Assembly (NCBI GenBank): GCA_037127815.1
Contig: JBAXXP010000005.1
Span: forward strand, 1 to 46,097
Source of the DNA: a bacterium
GTDB taxonomy: Bacteria > Patescibacteriota > Minisyncoccia > Phycocordibacterales > CAIZLB01
Direction: 5' to 3'
DNA length: 46,097 nucleotides
Positions within the stretch are counted from its first letter, which is position 1. Every line of letters starts with the position of its first letter. Below the pieces are notes generated by a model, which saw nothing but the letters and a program-made list of their open reading frames with translations, was not told the DNA's origin and searched no databases. The position numbers were made by a program, and so were the translations under genes. Below are positions 3,273-13,741 of this stretch, piece after piece.

Positions 3273-5933
3273 CTATTTACACTTAGTAGTAGAAACTGCG
3301 CCTAAAATCTTCTTGCTTGCGCCAGTATTGTCAACACACCAACTAAAAGTATTATCACTAGCCATAGGAGCGGATAACGCCCAAGCGTCAACCTTTCCTA
3401 ACATTCCCATAGATACACATGTTGCCTTAGAAGGATCATTATTCGTAGCTTGATTTATTAATGAAAACATAACTTTATCACCAAAAAGTGTTCCAGCAGT
3501 TTGCTTACAAACACCGAATCCAAAAGGATTTTTTCCATAACTATTTTTTGAAGACGTACTATTATCGTAGATCAACTCTGCTTGAGCTCTCATATTTGAA
3601 AGCGACGATTGAATAGCGGCATCTTGCCCTTTACTTCTTGCGCCTGTAAGTGAGCTAGACACACTGTCTGAAAGCTTATCTATAGGTGTCGCCCCCACTG
3701 GAGTCTCAATAGTTATAGGCTTATTGATATTCGAAATATCTAATTTAAACGTCACATTGATTTGTTTATCCTTTAATTGAGTAGCATCATCCGGTGGAAC
3801 AACCCTCATTGTATTCTGAACAACAACAGGAAAGCCTTGACCGTCTGTCCATATAGCAAAACTATTATTTTTATCAAAATAGTCAAAGACCTGACTAAAC
3901 TCATCGCTCTTCAAATAATCCAAATAACCTTGGTCAATTCCCGCTGCATATTCTGCAAAATCGGGATTTGTAGTTATTTCGCTCTGTACCCTAGTATAGA
4001 AAGAAATAATTTTTTCTTTTCTCAGACTCAGATCATATTTAACCAAATTACGTCCATCTAAATTCTCAGTTTTTGGTGCATTTCTAAATAGTATAATTTT
4101 CTCCTCGTCAGCAATTGCAACAACCTTTTTAATAAACTTCACAAATTTATCACGATTCTCTTTGTACTTTGCTTCCTGCTCTGGAATTGAAGTCTGTATA
4201 AATGAAAACGGAGAACTTACGTTATCCCCAGTGGATGAAGCTGTAGCCGACTCAGTGGAAGAGGCTTTTGATGGAACAACAACCCACTTTCCTTTAACTT
4301 TTGCCAATGCATCGAATAAAAAGAAGCTTGGCATATTATTTATTTTAAAATAATAATTATCACCCTTTTTAAGAGCGTCTGCATTTATTTTGTAAGTCAT
4401 GTCACCAAAGTCCCCTGTTGCATCCAAATTGAATGACCAATCTGCCATAGCTCCAGCACTTAAGTCTGAAGATGCACTAACTGCGATCTTTGCACTTGCT
4501 TGTGGTGGAATCATGCTAAGCATTCCACTCATTTGAGTTAAGAAAGGCTTTGGAGGCTCTCCACTGAAGGAGTAACTGCTAAAATAACTATCTTTTGTGA
4601 ATGTAACCTTTTTGCCCTCTATTTTTGTACTTGTTGCTGAATAACCTGAACCCTTAATTGTTTTAATTGCATCATCAGTAGCAAAGTCTACAACTAACTC
4701 AAAATTCTTGCCGTCCTCAGTTACTTTATATGCATACGCTGCAGATGTCTCGGGATCAAACAAGGAGTATGTAATATTTTTAGAAGTAAAAGCAGCGACC
4801 AAAGTAGTTGTGTAAGACTTGTATAGCTTTTTTGTTGCAGTTGGAGCCCCGTAATTAGAATAATAACCAACACCTGAATTTAAACCACTTATAATACCCA
4901 ACGCATCTTTCAGACGCGTTCCGTCATAAAAATATTTCAACTTCAATTCTTTATCATTTGAAACTACCAGATTAAAAATTGTTGCATCCTTATCTCTTGC
5001 AACAACATTTACCGCTCCTGATGAAGTATATGTTGCAGTATTAATTTGTCCGATTTTTGCAAGCATACTAGATGAAAAATTAGCCTCCGTGTATGTAGAA
5101 GGTGCAAAAGGACCCATCTTTTTAATATAAGCATACGCAGTAGCACCACCAAGCAATATGATAATTAGTATAAGGAGTAGAATCAAAATTTGTTTTAATC
5201 CTCCACCTGATTTTACTGGTGTAGACGTAGAAGCTGATGCAATCGGATGATTAGTAAATCCATCGTTACTAAATGAATTAACACCGAGGTTTCCAAAAGT
5301 AGGATTTTTAGCACTAACCTGTGATTCTGCTGGAAACCCAGCTGGTGGATTGGCAGCAGAAAAAACATTTGCCACAGAAGGTTCAGACATAGGTGTAGAT
5401 ACTGGCGATGGCTCTGGCACATATTTGGGCATAACCGCATTAACAACCGGTCTTATTTGTTCTACATATTGAAAAGGCTCAACTTTTTCTAGTGTTGAAA
5501 CATGCGGTATTTCAACAATAGGTTCAATTACTGGAGCACCCAGCGGAACAGGAACTACCTCTTGTGCCTGCACAGGGACGGCTGTCTCTGGAATTGGTGC
5601 GAGTGTATTGATTTCAACAGGAGTAGCCATGGGAGAAGCAACAGGAATTGAGACCGGTGAAGTATTTATATTAACAACAGAAAATGGAGCTGGGGTAGGC
5701 AATGGAGAAGGTGTAGGTGACGGAGCCAGTATAGGTGATAAAGCTGAGTCAGGAACATGAGCTTGAGTTGGAGTCAAGTCGATAATATCTGCTTCAACTT
5801 CAGATACACCATCGGTTTCCATTCTAAATCCAACAGGTGGATTTTTAGATGTAAACTCTCTATGTGGTACATTATTTCCGTTTGAAGTACTATTTATCAC
5901 ACCATTTGTATCGTCATCTGTTGAATTAATCAT
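3273..5933 (-). CDS. Large membrane-anchored protein: Pro-rich N-terminal region, one TM, extracellular region with pilin-like segments
   Basis: 886-aa ORF; TM ILILLLILIIILLGGATAYAY; C-terminal ARSKGQDAAIQSSLSNMRAQAELIYD motif. Confidence 0.8.
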   Translation of the reverse strand: MINSTDDDTNGVINSTSNGNNVPHREFTSKNPPVGFRMETDGVSEVEADIIDLTPTQAHVPDSALSPILAPSPTPSPLPTPAPFSVVNINTSPVSIPVASPMATPVEINTLAPIPETAVPVQAQEVVPVPLGAPVIEPIVEIPHVSTLEKVEPFQYVEQIRPVVNAVMPKYVPEPSPVSTPMSEPSVANVFSAANPPAGFPAESQVSAKNPTFGNLGVNSFSNDGFTNHPIASASTSTPVKSGGGLKQILILLLILIIILLGGATAYAYIKKMGPFAPSTYTEANFSSSMLAKIGQINTATYTSSGAVNVVARDKDATIFNLVVSNDKELKLKYFYDGTRLKDALGIISGLNSGVGYYSNYGAPTATKKLYKSYTTTLVAAFTSKNITYSLFDPETSAAYAYKVTEDGKNFELVVDFATDDAIKTIKGSGYSATSTKIEGKKVTFTKDSYFSSYSFSGEPPKPFLTQMSGMLSMIPPQASAKIAVSASSDLSAGAMADWSFNLDATGDFGDMTYKINADALKKGDNYYFKINNMPSFFLFDALAKVKGKWVVVPSKASSTESATASSTGDNVSSPFSFIQTSIPEQEAKYKENRDKFVKFIKKVVAIADEEKIILFRNAPKTENLDGRNLVKYDLSLRKEKIISFYTRVQSEITTNPDFAEYAAGIDQGYLDYLKSDEFSQVFDYFDKNNSFAIWTDGQGFPVVVQNTMRVVPPDDATQLKDKQINVTFKLDISNINKPITIETPVGATPIDKLSDSVSSSLTGARSKGQDAAIQSSLSNMRAQAELIYDNSTSSKNSYGKNPFGFGVCKQTAGTLFGDKVMFSLINQATNNDPSKATCVSMGMLGKVDAWALSAPMASDNTFSWCVDNTGASKKILGAVSTTKCK

Positions 5934-6522: not shown

Positions 6523-7233
6523 CTACTTAACACCCTTCAACTCTTTGCGGACCTCCAGATAATCAGGAATAGTTTCCTCAACTAATTTCCAAAATTTTTC
6601 TGAGTGATTAAATTGTCCAAGGTGACAAATTTCATGAACAACAAGGTAATCAGCAAGCTTTTCAGGAAGCAAGGCAATTTTATAATTAAAATTCAGATTT
6701 CCATTTCTTGAGCAACTTCCCCATCTAGTTTTTTGATTTTTAATACTTATTTTATCAAATTTAAACTTGTAATGAGCGTTCCATTGATTAACCTTTTCTG
6801 TCGCAATTCTTAATGCATCTTTTTTAACCCTAGCGTATGAGGCCTTAGAGTCAGCATTCTTTTCAGCTTTAGTTTTTCTAGGTTCAAGGGGATTTTGAAT
6901 ATTTTTAAAATGTTCGATTTTTTCCATCACCCATTCTTTTTTTTGTTCAATAATTCTCTCAATCATTAAAATACTCACTCTTGGAGGAGTGGTTACAATG
7001 AATTCTCCGTCTGAATTTATTGCCAGTCTAATGGATTTGGAGCGAGGGTTGAGGCGGAGAGTATAAGTCACATCTTGACCATTCAAAACAATTTTATTCT
7101 GCATGACCTTGATTGGTCTTTTTGCTTTAATTCTAATTACAGCTCTTTTTCTGACAACACGTGTGACCCTTGTAGGTTTTCTTTTCCTAAGTGCAGTTAT
7201 TTTCTTTTTAAGTTTCAGTAACGTGTGTAGCAT
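6523..7233 (-). CDS. M48/YgjP (DUF45, SprT-like) zinc metallo-hydrolase with Lys/Arg-rich N-terminus
   Basis: KTRWGSCS...DYLVVHEICHLGQFNHSEKFW (HExxH); start uncertain. Confidence 0.9.
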   Translation of the reverse strand: MLHTLLKLKKKITALRKRKPTRVTRVVRKRAVIRIKAKRPIKVMQNKIVLNGQDVTYTLRLNPRSKSIRLAINSDGEFIVTTPPRVSILMIERIIEQKKEWVMEKIEHFKNIQNPLEPRKTKAEKNADSKASYARVKKDALRIATEKVNQWNAHYKFKFDKISIKNQKTRWGSCSRNGNLNFNYKIALLPEKLADYLVVHEICHLGQFNHSEKFWKLVEETIPDYLEVRKELKGVK

Positions 7234-7272
7234 TGTTAAAATCTTTATAAAATACTAATTATAAATTAACCT

Positions 7273-7689
7273 TTATGCCCAGAACCCCTCATTATCCTTC
7301 ACGCACTTCAGAATATCGTCTATAGATTCTTCAGGCTTAAAGCCACAAGTTTTCAATTCCTTAAGCGGAACCCAATCGAACTCAATGTGATCCTCCAAAC
7401 TGTGAACATCATTATAATCCGCAAGCTTTACTATATATATTGAAATAAATTCATGCATTTCAATTAGATCTTCAACGTATTCATTCTCAACCTCAATTAT
7501 TCTTTGAACTTTCTCAACCTCCTTACCAATTTCCTCTTGTATTTCTCTTCTGAATGCTTGATCCTCAGATTCACCTTGTTCAATATGCCCACCAGGCAAA
7601 TAGTAATGGCCCTTACTAAGATTCTTGCATAATAATATTTTGGCATCCTTAACGATTATTCCTCTCGCGATTAGATCTATGTTTGTCAT
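7273..7689 (-). CDS. NUDIX hydrolase
   Basis: Nudix box GGHIEQGESEDQAFRREIQEEIG. Confidence 0.92.
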   Translation of the reverse strand: MTNIDLIARGIIVKDAKILLCKNLSKGHYYLPGGHIEQGESEDQAFRREIQEEIGKEVEKVQRIIEVENEYVEDLIEMHEFISIYIVKLADYNDVHSLEDHIEFDWVPLKELKTCGFKPEESIDDILKCVKDNEGFWA

Positions 7690-9055: not shown

Positions 9056-10312
9056 TTAATTAGTAAGAATCTCAATAGCCTTTAACATTTGAGGGTCTGT
9101 ACCCTTTTTAACGTCATCAGCAGTAACCTTAACCTCGACATCTGGAGTAAGACCTCCTTCTGAAATTGACCTACCGTTTGGTGTTAACCATCTAGCGATT
9201 GTAACCTTTAGTGATGTATCGGGAGTCAATTTTACAAGCTCCTGAACAGAACCTTTTCCAAAAGTACGAGTTCCAACAAGCTTAGCCTTTCCATTTTCTT
9301 GAAGTGCACCAGCAAGAATCTCAGAGGCAGATGCAGAACCTTGATCAACAAGTATTACAGTACGTAGATTATCATTAAAGATATTATATCCTCTACTCTT
9401 TTCTGATGTCTCAGGCTTTCCTTTACTATAACTTTCTCTTACGATAGTTTTTCCTGGAGGAAGAAACCAACTTGCCATGTCAACCGCTGAATCTAAATAT
9501 CCTCCTGGATTTCCTCTGACATCTATAATTAGTCTATTGCTTTTTGAATCTACAAAACTCTTTAACGCAACTCTAAACAATGATGCTGATTGTGCAGAGA
9601 AATTATAAAGTTTAATTGTAAATATTCCAGTCTTTGCGTCGTAGTTTGAATCGAGCGTTGGAAGATTTATAACGTCTCTCACTACTTTAATTTCTATTGT
9701 CGATGTTGCATCACCTCTAAGCAGAGTAAATGCCACTTGTGTACCCTTTGGACCTCTAATTAATTTAACAGCTTGTTCAACACTAAGACCTCCTGTTGTT
9801 AGAGTGCTATCGATTTTTAATATCTTGTCCCCACTCATTATTCCCGCCTTTTCAGCTGGAGTGCTCTTTAGGGCAGAAATAACAGTAAGAATGTCATTCT
9901 TAATACCAAGCTCCATTCCAACACCTTCAAAGTTACCGTCTATTTCACTTTCAAAGATTGAGGATTCTGATGGTGTAAAGAATACTGTATAAGGGTCGCC
10001 AAGTGCTGCTGTCATTCCTTTAATAGCACCATACACTCTATCTTGATTAGTTGGAGCGGGTGAGGTTGTTGAATTGTGAGTTGCAACATACTTATCATTT
10101 AATGTTGACCATGCTTTCCAAAATAATTCAAAATCAGCACTAACTTCTTTTGGTTTACTCTTATCTGTATTAACGACTCCTGGGATTTTACTGGCCTCAG
10201 CTGTTCCCATCTGTCCCGATATAAAACCAGATGCAAATACTGCTCCAACAACTAAAACAACTAGTGCTCCAGTTCCAATCCTCTTTAAAATTTCTTTCTT
10301 TTGATTTATCAT
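9056..10312 (-). CDS. ctpA: C-terminal processing peptidase (S41A, PDZ)
   Basis: DPYT, PDZ domain, DVRGNPGGYL, SASASEILAGALQ, TFGKGSVQ, GLTPD motifs. Confidence 0.95.
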   Translation of the reverse strand: MINQKKEILKRIGTGALVVLVVGAVFASGFISGQMGTAEASKIPGVVNTDKSKPKEVSADFELFWKAWSTLNDKYVATHNSTTSPAPTNQDRVYGAIKGMTAALGDPYTVFFTPSESSIFESEIDGNFEGVGMELGIKNDILTVISALKSTPAEKAGIMSGDKILKIDSTLTTGGLSVEQAVKLIRGPKGTQVAFTLLRGDATSTIEIKVVRDVINLPTLDSNYDAKTGIFTIKLYNFSAQSASLFRVALKSFVDSKSNRLIIDVRGNPGGYLDSAVDMASWFLPPGKTIVRESYSKGKPETSEKSRGYNIFNDNLRTVILVDQGSASASEILAGALQENGKAKLVGTRTFGKGSVQELVKLTPDTSLKVTIARWLTPNGRSISEGGLTPDVEVKVTADDVKKGTDPQMLKAIEILTN

Positions 10313-10361
10313 AATATTATTTCATTATCGCAGAGTTGGGTGGCGTGGTCAATGTATAAAG

Positions 10362-10459
10362 ACCAAAAAACTTTCTTTCTATAAGTACGAGGATTTCTTG
10401 CTAGAAATCCTCTCTACTCGTTGCAACTCGTAAGTCTCATAGAAAGAAAGTTTTTTGGT
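10362..10459. repeat. 98-bp nested palindromic element (MITE/REP-like)
   Basis: Perfect 21-bp terminal IR ACCAAAAAACTTTCTTTCTAT / ATAGAAAGAAAGTTTTTTGGT with internal 10-bp hairpin. Confidence 0.75.
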
Positions 10460-10591
10460 TAGCTTCTACTTTTATCATCTTGACTGTAACTTAATTTAAT
10501 GCTTTAATACTACTCGAATTAGTCCTTCCTTATCTGTGGAATTTATGTTTGGAAACAAGATCAGAATTACCTTGCCAAAAGCAATTTAATT

Positions 10592-10804
10592 ATGGTCTTC
10601 AACCAAGCAAGAAACAACACAAGCAAAACAAGCATTATGAATCAAAAAACAAAGGAACTGCCTACCGGATCTGCTCAACAAGTGATCGCCCACGCCAAGT
10701 GGTCACGGTCACGGGGCCGTAACCCCTCCATGTCATTTGGTGGCCTCCGTAAGCCGCGTGAGGCGCTGGCTTTGGCGTTGTGGAGCGTGAAGAAAGCATC
10801 CTAA
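10592..10804 (+). CDS. Small basic hypothetical protein
   Basis: Own promoter-like TTGACT at 10480 and strong terminator; alternative start MNQK at 10637. Confidence 0.6.
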   Translation: MVFNQARNNTSKTSIMNQKTKELPTGSAQQVIAHAKWSRSRGRNPSMSFGGLRKPREALALALWSVKKAS

Positions 10805-10825
10805 CCTCCGGCTCAGCCCGTCCCC

Positions 10826-10857
10826 ATCCCCCGCAAGCTTGCTTGCGGGGGATTTTC
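10826..10857 (+). terminator. Intrinsic terminator
   Basis: ATCCCCCGCAAGC-TT-GCTTGCGGGGGAT then TTT. Confidence 0.8.
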
Positions 10858-10932
10858 CATATCTAATTTTGTAACACCCCATTGAATAGTGTTTGGTACA
10901 TACATAATATATGCTAGAATTCAATCAACATT

Positions 10933-12384
10933 ATGGACAACAACACCACTGAAAACTCGAGTGATATTTATCTATTCAACACATTAGGTAAATCAAAACA
11001 AAAATTCTCCCCCATCACACCTAATAAGGTTGGAATGTACCATTGTGGACCAACTGTTTATGATTACCCTCATATTGGAAACCTAAGAGCCTATGTTTTT
11101 GCAGATACATTAAGACGTGTTTTTGAATACAACGGATATGAAGTTAATCAGGTGATAAATATCACAGACATTGGACATCTTTCAAGTGATTCAGATGAAG
11201 GTGAAGACAAAATGACTAAAGCCATTTTACGCGAAGGTAAAACAATGACCCTTGCATCAATGCGTGAAATCGCTGACTATTATTATCATTCATTCAGGGA
11301 TGCAATAAAAGATCTGAATATTCTAAGTGCATCAACATACCCTTTTGCTAGTGATCATATAAAGGAAGATGTAGATATGATAAATATTCTGCTGGATAAA
11401 GATGTCGCATATAAAACATCCAAAGGAATATATTTTGATACTTCAAAAAAAGCTGATTATGGAAAGCTGGGGCAAACTGCTGGGGATGAAAGTAGAATTG
11501 GTGAAGATTCAGAAAAAAGAAACTATAAAGACTTTGCTATTTGGAAATTTGATGACAAGTTAGGATATGATACTACATTTGGAAAAGGCTTTCCCGGCTG
11601 GCACATAGAATGTTCTGCAATGTCTGCAAAATATTTGGGAGATAGTTTCGATATTCATACAGGTGGAGTTGACCACATCCCAGTTCATCATAATAACGAA
11701 ATTGCACAATCAGAATGTGCGCATGGTGGTGCTCCCCTTGCTAACTTTTGGCTACATAATGCTTTTCTAATTTTTGAAGGTGGAAAAATGTCCAAGTCCG
11801 CTGGTACTTTTATTACAATAGACACATTAAAAGAGAAAGGTATTCTTCCTCTTGCTTATAGATACTGGCTGCTTACAGCAAGATACAGCACTGCTATCAA
11901 TTACTCACATACAGCACTAGAGGATGCCAACCGCGCATATTCAAAATTAATAGACTCTACAGCTTCACTTATTGCAGACGCTGGTAAATATCTAGATGGA
12001 GAATCTGACACATTTAAGGAATATAAGAATAATTTTTTGAAGTTTGTGAACGATGATCTAGACACACCCAAAGCTCTTGCTTTAGTATGGTCACTTCTGA
12101 AGGATGTGGAAATTGAGAACAATGAAAAACTACAATTAATTGAACAATTTGATAATGTTCTTGGATTAAACATAATTCAATCCGCAAAAGACAAGGTTCA
12201 AGCCACAGAAAGTGTTATCGAGGATCTAACTGAAGAAGTGAAGGCTCTCATTGAAGAAAGGGAAAAAGCTCGTAAGGAAAAGAATTGGGCAGAGGCTGAT
12301 TTAATCAGAATGAAAATTAATGATTTAGGTTATAAAGTTGAGGATACAGGAAATGATACAAAACCAAAAATCTCTATAATCTAA
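10933..12384 (+). CDS. cysS: Cysteine--tRNA ligase
   Basis: CGPTVYDYPHIGN, GFPGWHIECSAM, DIHTGGVDH, KMSKS motifs. Confidence 0.98.
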   Translation: MDNNTTENSSDIYLFNTLGKSKQKFSPITPNKVGMYHCGPTVYDYPHIGNLRAYVFADTLRRVFEYNGYEVNQVINITDIGHLSSDSDEGEDKMTKAILREGKTMTLASMREIADYYYHSFRDAIKDLNILSASTYPFASDHIKEDVDMINILLDKDVAYKTSKGIYFDTSKKADYGKLGQTAGDESRIGEDSEKRNYKDFAIWKFDDKLGYDTTFGKGFPGWHIECSAMSAKYLGDSFDIHTGGVDHIPVHHNNEIAQSECAHGGAPLANFWLHNAFLIFEGGKMSKSAGTFITIDTLKEKGILPLAYRYWLLTARYSTAINYSHTALEDANRAYSKLIDSTASLIADAGKYLDGESDTFKEYKNNFLKFVNDDLDTPKALALVWSLLKDVEIENNEKLQLIEQFDNVLGLNIIQSAKDKVQATESVIEDLTEEVKALIEEREKARKEKNWAEADLIRMKINDLGYKVEDTGNDTKPKISII

Positions 12385-12421
12385 TTATTTTACTTACAAT
12401 TACTTGTAGAACCTCTTTTGA

Positions 12422-12451
12422 TTGACATCACTGTTATTTTTATATATTATA
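12422..12451 (+). promoter_or_regulatory. Sigma70-like promoter pointing into the 3' end of the NYN gene
   Basis: Perfect TTGACA at 12422-12427 followed by a TATATTATATAT -10 region; no + strand ORF follows. Confidence 0.55.
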
Positions 12452-12454
12452 TAC

Positions 12455-12507
12455 GCATTACGACAAAAGAGGATCCGAAAGGTGCAAGTGCCTTAGGAGC
12501 CTTTTTT
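12455..12507 (+). ncRNA. Putative ~50-nt structured RNA convergent with and overlapping the NYN stop codon
   Basis: Promoter upstream; AAAAGAGGATCC pairs with GGAGCCTTTTTT; inner AGGTG/TGCCT hairpin; ends in T6. Confidence 0.5.
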
Positions 12508-13062
12508 ATTTACCTCACTTTCTATATATATTTTAATATTTTCAAGGAAGTCATAAAATTTAGATCCAATTTTTTTATATAATGATGAAGCTCTTTTCTT
12601 ATCAGGAAATAGTATCTTTTTAAACTTGTTCTCTTCGATGAGAAAATCTACCAGATTCTTATAGTCTCCATCACCAGAAACTAGAATAACTTTATCAAAT
12701 AATTCATGCTTATATATTTTTTTCATAATAGCGAAGACAATATCTGAATCAACATTGCCTTTTTTAGAACCAGCCATGTTTTGATGATGCTGTCTAAATA
12801 CCAATACAAAGCCAGAAGTTTGAATTTTTTCATAAATTTGTTGTATGCTTTCGCTGTTTTGTACATATCCCAAATGATAAAAAGCTTGTGTGACAAAATA
12901 TTTTTCCGCAAGATAAATTCTAAATTTTTTTAGATCAATACTCCAAGCATCATTTTCCTTCTTAACCGTTCCTATATATAGATTCTGCCCATCAATAAAA
13001 GCATAGTTTTGCTCTCTTTTGGACCTATTCTTACTATCATTGATATTTTCATTTTTGTTCAT
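12493..13062 (-). CDS. NYN domain (LabA/DUF88, PIN-like) ribonuclease
   Basis: AFIDGQNL, KGNVDSD, ILVSGDGDY acidic catalytic motifs; start MNKNE at 13062. Confidence 0.93.
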   Translation of the reverse strand: MNKNENINDSKNRSKREQNYAFIDGQNLYIGTVKKENDAWSIDLKKFRIYLAEKYFVTQAFYHLGYVQNSESIQQIYEKIQTSGFVLVFRQHHQNMAGSKKGNVDSDIVFAIMKKIYKHELFDKVILVSGDGDYKNLVDFLIEENKFKKILFPDKKRASSLYKKIGSKFYDFLENIKIYIESEVNKKGS

Positions 13063-13162
13063 GCGGTTATTATATATTTTACACATGAAGAGAACCCGAA
13101 GATTTTATAAAGAAATGCATCAAAAATAGACTCTTCTTGGGAATCGCTGTATAATTTACTAT

Positions 13163-13741
13163 ATGAACACCATCATCACCCTCACTACCGTACAGCTCGT
13201 ATCAATTGCACTTGGTGCAGCTGCAGCTTTTATTATTGACATGTTTTTTATCGCATCACTCAATCACAGTAAGCTTAGACCAAAAGAAGTTTTGATGGTT
13301 AGAAGATTAAGTTTACTAAGCATCTCTGCTGCAATAATTGCACTATTTATTCAAACGTTAATTCTGTTTATAATCCCCGCAACAATCCCAGATCAATTTT
13401 TAACATTCTCTTTTGTAACAATTCTTTTTACAATTGCAGCCCTCGTTTGTTCTATGACCCTAAGAAGAGTTCATATTCCAGCACTAATAAGACATCAGAA
13501 TCAACACGCTCATTTATCTGAACATCATATGTATCACGGAGAAGAAATTGTTCTAGTTTCAACAATCTCAACTGTCTCATGGCTTACTGTAATTGTAATT
13601 TACGCAGTAGCTCAAATTGGCGAGTATTCATCCCCATACCCCTTCATAATTGGTTACATCATATTTGTAGTGATTATGTCATGGTTGACAAGGGTAATAA
13701 AAAGACATCTACTGGATTCTAGAAAACATAAAAAAGCTTAA
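13163..13741 (+). CDS. Hypothetical membrane protein (about 5 TM, His-rich loop)
   Basis: Hydrophobic segments; RHQNQHAHLSEHHMYHG loop. Confidence 0.75.
   Translation: MNTIITLTTVQLVSIALGAAAAFIIDMFFIASLNHSKLRPKEVLMVRRLSLLSISAAIIALFIQTLILFIIPATIPDQFLTFSFVTILFTIAALVCSMTLRRVHIPALIRHQNQHAHLSEHHMYHGEEIVLVSTISTVSWLTVIVIYAVAQIGEYSSPYPFIIGYIIFVVIMSWLTRVIKRHLLDSRKHKKA

Follow-up and report, generated by a model that had tools for sequence, protein, structure and literature searches.

A conserved small-RNA gene facing NYN nuclease genes in Patescibacteria: a candidate nuclease and RNA-antidote cassette

A small-RNA gene opposite an NYN nuclease gene

We analyzed a 46,097-nucleotide (nt) stretch of contig JBAXXP010000005.1 (hereafter the window), which belongs to a Patescibacteriota genome (GCA_037127815.1; 842 kb, 9 contigs, 95.6% complete), and focused on a short region in which a predicted small RNA (sRNA) gene faces the 3′ end of a gene encoding an NYN-domain nuclease. 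Sequence comparisons indicate that the sRNA gene at this locus is real and conserved and that its partner is an accessory NYN nuclease, and the most likely interpretation is that the two form a mobile cassette consisting of a nuclease and its RNA antidote. The features that make up the pair are listed below by position in the window.

12422–12427, plus strand: −35 box of the sRNA promoter, a perfect TTGACA read from the sequence, with a counterpart in most homologous loci
12445–12450, plus strand: −10 box of the sRNA promoter, TATTAT, after a 17-nt spacer; 11/12 match to the consensus
12457–12511, plus strand: predicted sRNA of ~52–55 nt, in which an 8-nt 5′ leader (AUUACGAC) precedes a hairpin with a U-tail; both ends are predicted
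12465–12507, plus strand: hairpin and U6, the sRNA terminator, probably bidirectional according to folding on both strands
12493–13062, minus strand: NYN/LabA-like nuclease gene, 189 amino acids (aa), Pfam PF01936; 197 aa if translated from the alternative ATG at 13086

The original prediction for this DNA, made without database searches, described a TTGACA at 12422 with an AT-rich −10 region that points toward the 3′ end of the NYN gene and has no open reading frame (ORF) to express. Our coordinates agree with this description, and there is no ORF within the predicted transcript; the 54-aa TTG-initiated ORF at 12418–12582 begins upstream of the predicted start, which we placed at ~12457, 7 nt past the −10 box. 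The TTGACA-17-TATTAT arrangement is the top-scoring promoter-like site between 9 and 17 kb in the window. Promoters scoring at least 11/12 nevertheless occur in this AT-rich genome at a frequency near chance (68 in the real sequence versus 45–60 in shuffled sequence), and the promoter at a single locus is therefore not significant alone; judged by sequence comparison, its significance derives from its conservation in relatives.

The plus-strand RNA has a folding energy of −16.6 kcal/mol (z = −3.3), and none of 200 shuffled sequences was equally stable. Its base pairs fall into segments of 8, 3 and 5 (12465–12472/12500–12507, 12474–12476/12496–12498 and 12479–12483/12490–12494) that are separated by a bulge of one base and an internal GA/A loop; the geometry originally given for the hairpin, a 12-bp stem with a GAA bulge and an inner hairpin, is matched roughly but not exactly. 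The U6 with which the RNA was expected to end lies at 12502–12507, and the expected overlap with the nuclease gene is also found: the last five codons (NKKGS) and the TAA stop codon (12493–12495) fall within the sRNA gene, the latter in the hairpin's 3′ arm. On the minus strand the hairpin reads at −13.0 kcal/mol and is probably a bidirectional terminator, because UUUUGU follows it there; both strands thus present the G+C-containing hairpin and U-run of an intrinsic terminator, in addition to the role of this element in the sRNA gene. It would probably also terminate the NYN messenger RNA (mRNA) as well as read-through from cysS, the gene to its left. Shortly before the −35 box, the 12 nt at 12409–12420 show 92% complementarity to the hairpin's 5′ arm (12464–12475), and could compete with terminator formation in cysS read-through transcripts.

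The product of the NYN gene matched Pfam PF01936 with 63.4 bits (cut-off 24.2; E = 4e-17), which was its sole Pfam match, and NCBIfam held no family for it. Five residues that comprise the acidic metal-binding or catalytic positions (D32, N35, D113, D139 and D141 in the 197-aa numbering) are conserved in 19–20 of 20 homologues, and the nearest solved structure is PDB 2QIP (VPA0982; E = 2e-6). The protein is accordingly a predicted ribonuclease (RNase) with an intact active site.

Conservation of the pair and of the RNA structure

Relatives of this genome carry the labels Candidatus Paceibacterota, Nomurabacteria or Patescibacteria. NYN homologues in 60 related genomes share 30–66% identity with the window copy and have an opposite-strand sRNA unit past the stop codon. 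The shared unit consists of a TTGACA-16/17-TATAAT promoter, a short leader, an AAAAG.CCC / GGG.CUUUU stem, a variable inner hairpin and a U-tract. From an alignment of 17 homologous loci, the consensus fold of which has compensatory changes in 12 of 15 pairs, we built a covariance model that we refer to as R1. The predicted sRNA in the window matches R1 with 49.7 bits (E = 5e-9), and its leader, AUUACGAC, aligns with the family consensus, AUCACUAC. Four strong R1 hits were recovered in this genome, all of them convergent and immediately 3′ of NYN paralogues. Among the 60 relatives there were 62 distinct hits, 37 of which lie at the 3′ end of a detected NYN gene, and every one of these 37 is convergent; the closest homologues in a collection of species genomes have the sRNA in nine cases out of nine. 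Counts from the large searches are lower bounds, as Infernal's strict filters were used.

Two further sets of loci that had not been used to build the model gave similar pictures. Twenty R1 hits were fetched from an even, phylum-wide sample of 400 genomes; 17 were linked to NYN and three were orphans, and a promoter was present in all 20. A stringent 36-nt degenerate pattern matched more than 120 species genomes, almost all labeled as Patescibacteria lineages, from which we inspected 80 loci from 80 other species that hold 81 instances (65 NYN-linked, 12 orphans and 4 too near a contig end to judge). The promoter scored at least 10/12 in 60 of 79 instances of this set, and the distance between the −10 box and the stem was 20–21 nt in 53 of 60. 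The original prediction had been made to depend on whether the promoter and the structure recur beside NYN homologues, and both do so down to 30% NYN identity.

We then evaluated the structure across 61 distinct sequences. In this alignment, which was fitted to the model and so somewhat favors structure, pairing extends over 89.5% of the cells, and two-sided changes (150 cells) are seen in 13 of 15 pairs. Each of the five measures exceeded those of shuffled alignments (0–3 of 500 shuffles reached them), and the register was far above slid controls. The sRNA strand has 113 G-U pairs, versus 29 for the NYN strand (seen as A-C or C-A), a bias with a binomial p = 7e-13 for sequences that are not independent. 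These patterns indicate that the RNA structure is under selection on the sRNA strand; together with the conservation of promoter and structure, this rules out that the hairpin is merely the terminator of the NYN gene. Several unpaired nucleotides are conserved as well, namely the leader AUCACUAC(G), an invariant loop U, and YCGUC on the 3′ side of the apical loop (GUUYCGUC), and a U-G wobble occupies one stem position in 30 of the 61 sequences. The window copy belongs to a subtype that it shares with the closest NYN clade, with UCCGAAMGGU...CCUWAGGA as its inner part. Likeness of the loop to a U-turn (YUNR) motif, or of the RNA to a T-loop or K-turn, was judged by eye and rejected as inconsistent across members. 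Searches of Rfam 15, which includes the DUF3800 motifs, gave no match at the gathering score in the window, and none at E ≤ 1 in 10300–13200 or in four homologous loci.

The genetic behavior of the two genes is asymmetric. Among 28 NYN matches with E < 1e-15, the sRNA lies beside 26; the two remaining are a domain in a 1549-aa fusion ORF and an 88-aa fragment, such that all 26 full-length stand-alone accessory NYN genes have the sRNA. In the opposite direction, 15–25% of the sRNAs are orphans, mostly with strong promoters, and beside 18 lone sRNA hits a hidden Markov model detected no NYN remnants except short C-terminal stubs. Some genomes (G005 and G012, for example) have an orphan sRNA and no cognate NYN gene. 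NYN copies with in-frame stops stand beside intact sRNAs at two loci (L012 and L017) and at 5 of the 65 linked loci found by the pattern. An NYN gene that always has the sRNA, and an sRNA that also occurs alone, would constitute an indirect genetic signature of a toxin and its antidote.

This genome contains nine NYN paralogues, eight of which are accompanied by a convergent promoter (11–12/12), a hairpin and a U-tract. Four of the eight units are of the R1 type, and the inner stems of these four paralogous sRNAs differ strongly. The other four, located at C4:~58371-59089, C4:~5392-5842, C1:~258679-259100 and C1:~329600-330323, have a shorter hairpin and accompany an NYN clade of 208–225 aa; the hairpin RNA of this second clade (AAAGGCAUCC-loop-GGGUGCCUUUU) has an 11/12 convergent promoter, is not covered by R1, and occurs also in three of three relatives of the clade. 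The ninth paralogue (C1:155189-155668) is a conserved LabA-like NYN orthologue with a long low-complexity tail that is apparently single-copy and retains 70–90% identity across orders. This housekeeping orthologue serves as an internal negative control: the convergent promoter and hairpin are absent from the copy here (0/1) and from seven relatives (0/7; L212–L218), and the unit was likewise found in none of seven loci of a set that may overlap the former (L023–L025, L027 and L029–L031). In another genome (G457) the cassette is present as a tandem duplicate.

Some orphan sRNAs have neighborhoods of their own. At one locus (L042, G034:C25) two orphan sRNA genes of different subtypes stand in tandem 109 nt apart (1501–1555 and 1610–1664), with no NYN gene nearby. 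Another orphan (L206, 4486–4521) lies on a viral contig (IMG/VR UViG_3300012168_000002) in the same direction as the phage genes; it has a weak promoter and no NYN gene and could be a counter-defense decoy, and is a single case. Orphans also adjoin genes with Doc/Fic-like and Phd-Doc-like N-termini, and one (L038, G034:C19) faces a gene ~400 nt away with a DUF3800-like N-terminus (MGMEKKNIYIDESGDTG); these likenesses were judged by eye, with no family search. At L091 (DAOVPY010000010.1, ~7070–7370 when numbered in the orientation of the sRNA), a 99-aa ORF has paired CxxC motifs that appear zinc-ribbon-like by eye, and ends in KQKAPDGDRTP, a tail that, like that of NYN proteins, is specified by the strand complementary to the sRNA hairpin; a different gene seems here to have acquired the NYN tail.

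The surroundings of the pair in the window are as follows.

10933–12384, plus strand: cysS, encoding cysteinyl-tRNA synthetase, left flank, outside the cassette; from family search
12385–13140, no strand: approximate extent of the inserted cassette (sRNA and NYN genes), from the empty site, G+C content and extent of homology
13069–13074, minus strand: −10-like TATAAT, 6 nt before the ATG at 13062, read from the sequence; no good −35 box
13163–13741, plus strand: membrane-protein gene with a weak DUF350 match, right flank, outside the cassette; from family search

The −35 box of the sRNA promoter begins 37 nt from the end of cysS. In a genome of the same genus (G005), a bare 32 nt separates cysS from the membrane-protein gene, and we treat this as the empty site. 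The cassette has a G+C content of 25–30%, versus 33–39% in the flanks, DNA homology to the nearest relative is confined to 12462–13018, and the nearest NYN homologues (64–66% identity) belong to other families of the order. No convincing target duplication or terminal (inverted) repeats were found around the cassette. A promoter scan found no minus-strand promoter of at least 9/12 upstream of the NYN gene, and the lone −10 box would act as a weak promoter from which NYN is transcribed as a leaderless mRNA. PADLOC matches were weak (HEC-09 at E = 2e-5, NYN at E = 2e-4), and GenBank phages contained no match to the NYN protein or to the sRNA; the PADLOC matches and the one phage-borne orphan are weak hints of a defense role for the cassette. 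The genome encodes RNase III. Upstream of cysS, an ORF-poor spacer of 620 nt (10313–10932) includes a G+C island (10600–10870; 52–57%, versus ~35% for the genome) with a 70-aa basic ORF (10592–10804), a fold z-score of −3.2 and, at its end, a strong 12-bp terminator (10822–10858); neither Rfam, at E ≤ 1, nor the DNA of 40 relatives gave a match to this island.

Relation to known toxin-antitoxin systems and RNA motifs

The original prediction labeled the locus as type III-like. The likeness is that an RNase is proposed to be neutralized by an adjacent small structured RNA, as in ToxIN, CptIN and TenpIN. The label did not hold up, however: there are no tandem repeats in 12200–13300, the RNA is single-copy and convergent rather than arrayed upstream on the same strand, and the putative toxin has an NYN fold, its only Pfam match, and is not of the ToxN/AbiQ, CptN or TenpN type. 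There is also no evidence that the toxin processes the RNA. Membership in type III was therefore rejected with regard to array, orientation and toxin family. The orphan on the viral contig recalls the escape of phages through pseudo-ToxI.

At the sequence level, the architecture most resembles that of convergent type I loci with a bidirectional terminator in common (par/Fst), and not that of type III. In Bacillus subtilis, txpA/RatA and bsrG/SR4 are related convergent type I loci. In par of pAD1, a ~40-nt antitoxin, RNA II, and the Fst toxin mRNA are made from convergent promoters and have a common bidirectional intrinsic terminator, and the complementary terminator stem-loops initiate pairing of the two RNAs (PMC7472228). 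The locus described here similarly has a convergent small RNA and a shared terminator in a small, self-contained, often multi-copy and mobile unit, and the convergent 3′ overlap of this type I subclass is present at the sequence level, with the NYN stop codon inside the sRNA unit at 59 of 65 linked loci. It differs in that the protein is a 165–225-aa NYN metallonuclease rather than a hydrophobic peptide of ~30 aa, in that there are no DRa/DRb-type repeats that pair with the translation start, and in that the RNA leader and loop are conserved in sequence across the phylum. The small hydrophobic membrane peptide that type I calls for is lacking, given that the window copy encodes a soluble 189-aa NYN enzyme.

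Antisense RNAs acting in cis or near-cis are also known to control toxins that act on nucleic acids and are not membrane peptides. RalR/RalA, a type I-like system with a nuclease toxin, resembles the present locus in this way. SymE/SymR shares the same likeness (PMC1891008). It differs from the present locus in that SymR overlaps the 5′ end of symE, and both systems have unrelated protein folds and are limited to enterobacteria. Outside toxin-antitoxin systems, the DUF3800-associated RNA motifs, drum and skipping-rope are terminated small structured RNAs, with DUF3800 genes having motifs of their own (Weinberg et al. 2017, PMC5737381), and resemble the sRNA in being tied to one nearby protein domain, in either orientation (PMC5737381). 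By contrast, the RNA described here has no Rfam match, a different partner domain, a single simple hairpin and a fixed convergent position, and NYN is not mentioned in that study (PMC5737381). Among proteins, 2QIP (VPA0982) and a CRISPR-associated stand-alone NYN of Bacteroides fragilis, which is a sequence-nonspecific Mn-dependent single-stranded RNase (bioRxiv 10.1101/2024.04.08.588522), belong to the same Pfam family and have the conserved acidic residues, but no partner RNA gene has been described for either.

We found no description of an NYN-sRNA pair in Rfam or in literature on NYN with antisense RNA, antitoxins or noncoding RNA of the Candidate Phyla Radiation (CPR). The central idea of the original prediction, that this NYN nuclease has a dedicated small structured RNA partner, is thus supported by conserved linkage, promoter and structure, with no described counterpart found.

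A proposed RNA antidote and its alternatives

One explanation for these observations, to which we assign a probability of roughly 0.5, is that the sRNA is an antidote that restrains the NYN nuclease, acting mainly as a cis-antisense RNA, in a cassette that moves horizontally among Patescibacteria. By construction, the sRNA and the 3′ end of the NYN mRNA are complementary throughout, and the loci in which the stop codon lies inside the sRNA unit comprise 24 with the stop in the hairpin, 27 with it under the U-tail and 8 with it beyond the hairpin. In this scheme an abundant, strongly transcribed sRNA would pair with the 3′ end of the NYN mRNA, with toeholds offered either by its U-tail, opposite the A-rich run that precedes the mRNA hairpin, or by the loops. 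The resulting duplex would be cleaved, or would block translation termination, and the NYN mRNA, having lost its protective hairpin and stop codon, would be degraded, so that little NYN protein would be made while the sRNA is present. The conserved unpaired leader AUCACUAC and loop GUUYCGUC may additionally allow direct recognition by a protein, perhaps NYN itself, and the conservation of these unpaired nucleotides suggests such recognition. As a stand-alone bacterial NYN is a nonspecific Mn-dependent single-stranded RNase, toxicity of an unrestrained copy is plausible.

This interpretation must be made cautiously, as several points weigh against it. Both the sRNA itself and its ends and abundance are predicted, and the toxicity of NYN and the protection by the RNA are a proposal only. 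A purely cis-antisense mechanism leaves unexplained both the phylum-wide conservation of leader and loop beside NYN proteins with as little as ~30% identity and the strong-promoter orphans in genomes with no cognate NYN gene, G005 and G012 among them. Classical type I toxins are small membrane peptides, whereas the protein here is an enzyme of 165–225 aa, and at 6 of 65 loci the sRNA unit does not include the stop codon. Neither conserved complementarity between the sRNA leader and the 5′ region of NYN nor a conserved NYN 5′ leader was seen.

Because cis-antisense pairing does not account for leader and loop conservation or for orphans that have no target, we retain direct inhibition of the protein as the main rival to the antisense antidote, or as a layer added to it. 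One may postulate that the hairpin with its 5′ flap binds NYN as a pseudo-substrate or inhibitor, in a manner reminiscent of type III, and that the antisense overlap is incidental to linkage; we consider this unlikely but deserving of attention. Unpaired nucleotides (A7 in the leader, the invariant loop U and YCGUC) are conserved throughout the phylum while the stems covary, the U-G wobble recurs at one stem position, strongly promoted orphans are present in genomes that lack a cognate NYN, and one orphan lies on a viral contig. The NYN fold is also common to PIN and FLAP nucleases, which recognize junctions between single and double strands. On the other hand, there is no repeat array and there are no processing sites, the placement of the stop codon inside most sRNA units would go unexplained if pairing were irrelevant, and the strongly differing inner stems of the four paralogous RNAs fit insulation by base pairing at least as well. 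A composite proposal, which we regard as doubtful, would assign the system to neither type I nor type III: a single-copy, conserved flap-hairpin RNA of ~55 nt would occupy LabA-like NYN RNases as a pseudo-substrate and also act as an antisense RNA over the stop codon, within a mini-cassette of ~0.7 kb that spreads in the CPR, with no fewer than three co-inherited RNA subtypes and as many as eight copies in 0.84 Mb, and the free RNA copies in genomes and phages would confer immunity or counter-defense when NYN cassettes enter.

An alternative scenario in which the sRNA is an ordinary antisense tuner of a non-toxic accessory RNase, with the cassette neither addictive nor defensive, draws on the same structural evidence as the antidote and is consistent with a housekeeping context (cysS, dnaB) rather than a defense island, and with the weakness of the PADLOC matches. 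We consider it improbable, since the NYN gene is never found without the sRNA while the sRNA occurs alone, the units are multi-copy (eight in 842 kb), patchily distributed and in one genome tandemly duplicated, and pseudogenized NYN genes stand beside intact RNAs; the multi-copy, patchy and asymmetric features are together typical of selfish toxin-antidote modules. The orphans beside Doc/Fic-like and Phd-Doc-like genes, known by their N-terminal sequences only, also argue against simple tuning.

Less probable still is that the RNA is a positive partner, in other words a cofactor, guide or dedicated substrate that NYN requires for its action. Tight linkage and conserved unpaired nucleotides would be expected of such an RNA, but with a leader of ~8 nt and a loop of 6 nt there is hardly any variable single-stranded segment that could guide, the variable parts being base-paired, and orphan RNAs are common while NYN genes lacking the RNA are not, whereas a cofactor would be predicted to be lost jointly with its enzyme. 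Finally, a mere bidirectional terminator between convergent cysS and NYN genes with a chance promoter match, which the hairpin with its A-tract and U-tract and the equal frequency of 11/12 promoters in shuffled sequence might suggest, appears to be refuted in practice by the comparative data, given that over 60 independent loci, with neighbors that differ, keep the promoter at a fixed distance, the unit travels with NYN and not with cysS as the empty site indicates, orphans keep their promoters, and the G-U bias points to selection on the sRNA strand.

The pairing is found in more than 120 species, and a minimal Patescibacteria genome devotes eight loci to cassettes of an NYN gene and an sRNA; many apparent terminators behind CPR genes would thus be sRNA genes. 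If the RNA is an antidote, the NYN (PIN-like) enzyme family and a large uncultured phylum would join the world of RNA antitoxins, many orphan genes annotated as “NYN domain-containing” would gain a function, and a simple, portable pair of nuclease and inhibitor would be at hand. It would also raise the question of whether such cassettes serve addiction, phage defense or RNA turnover in these episymbiotic bacteria.

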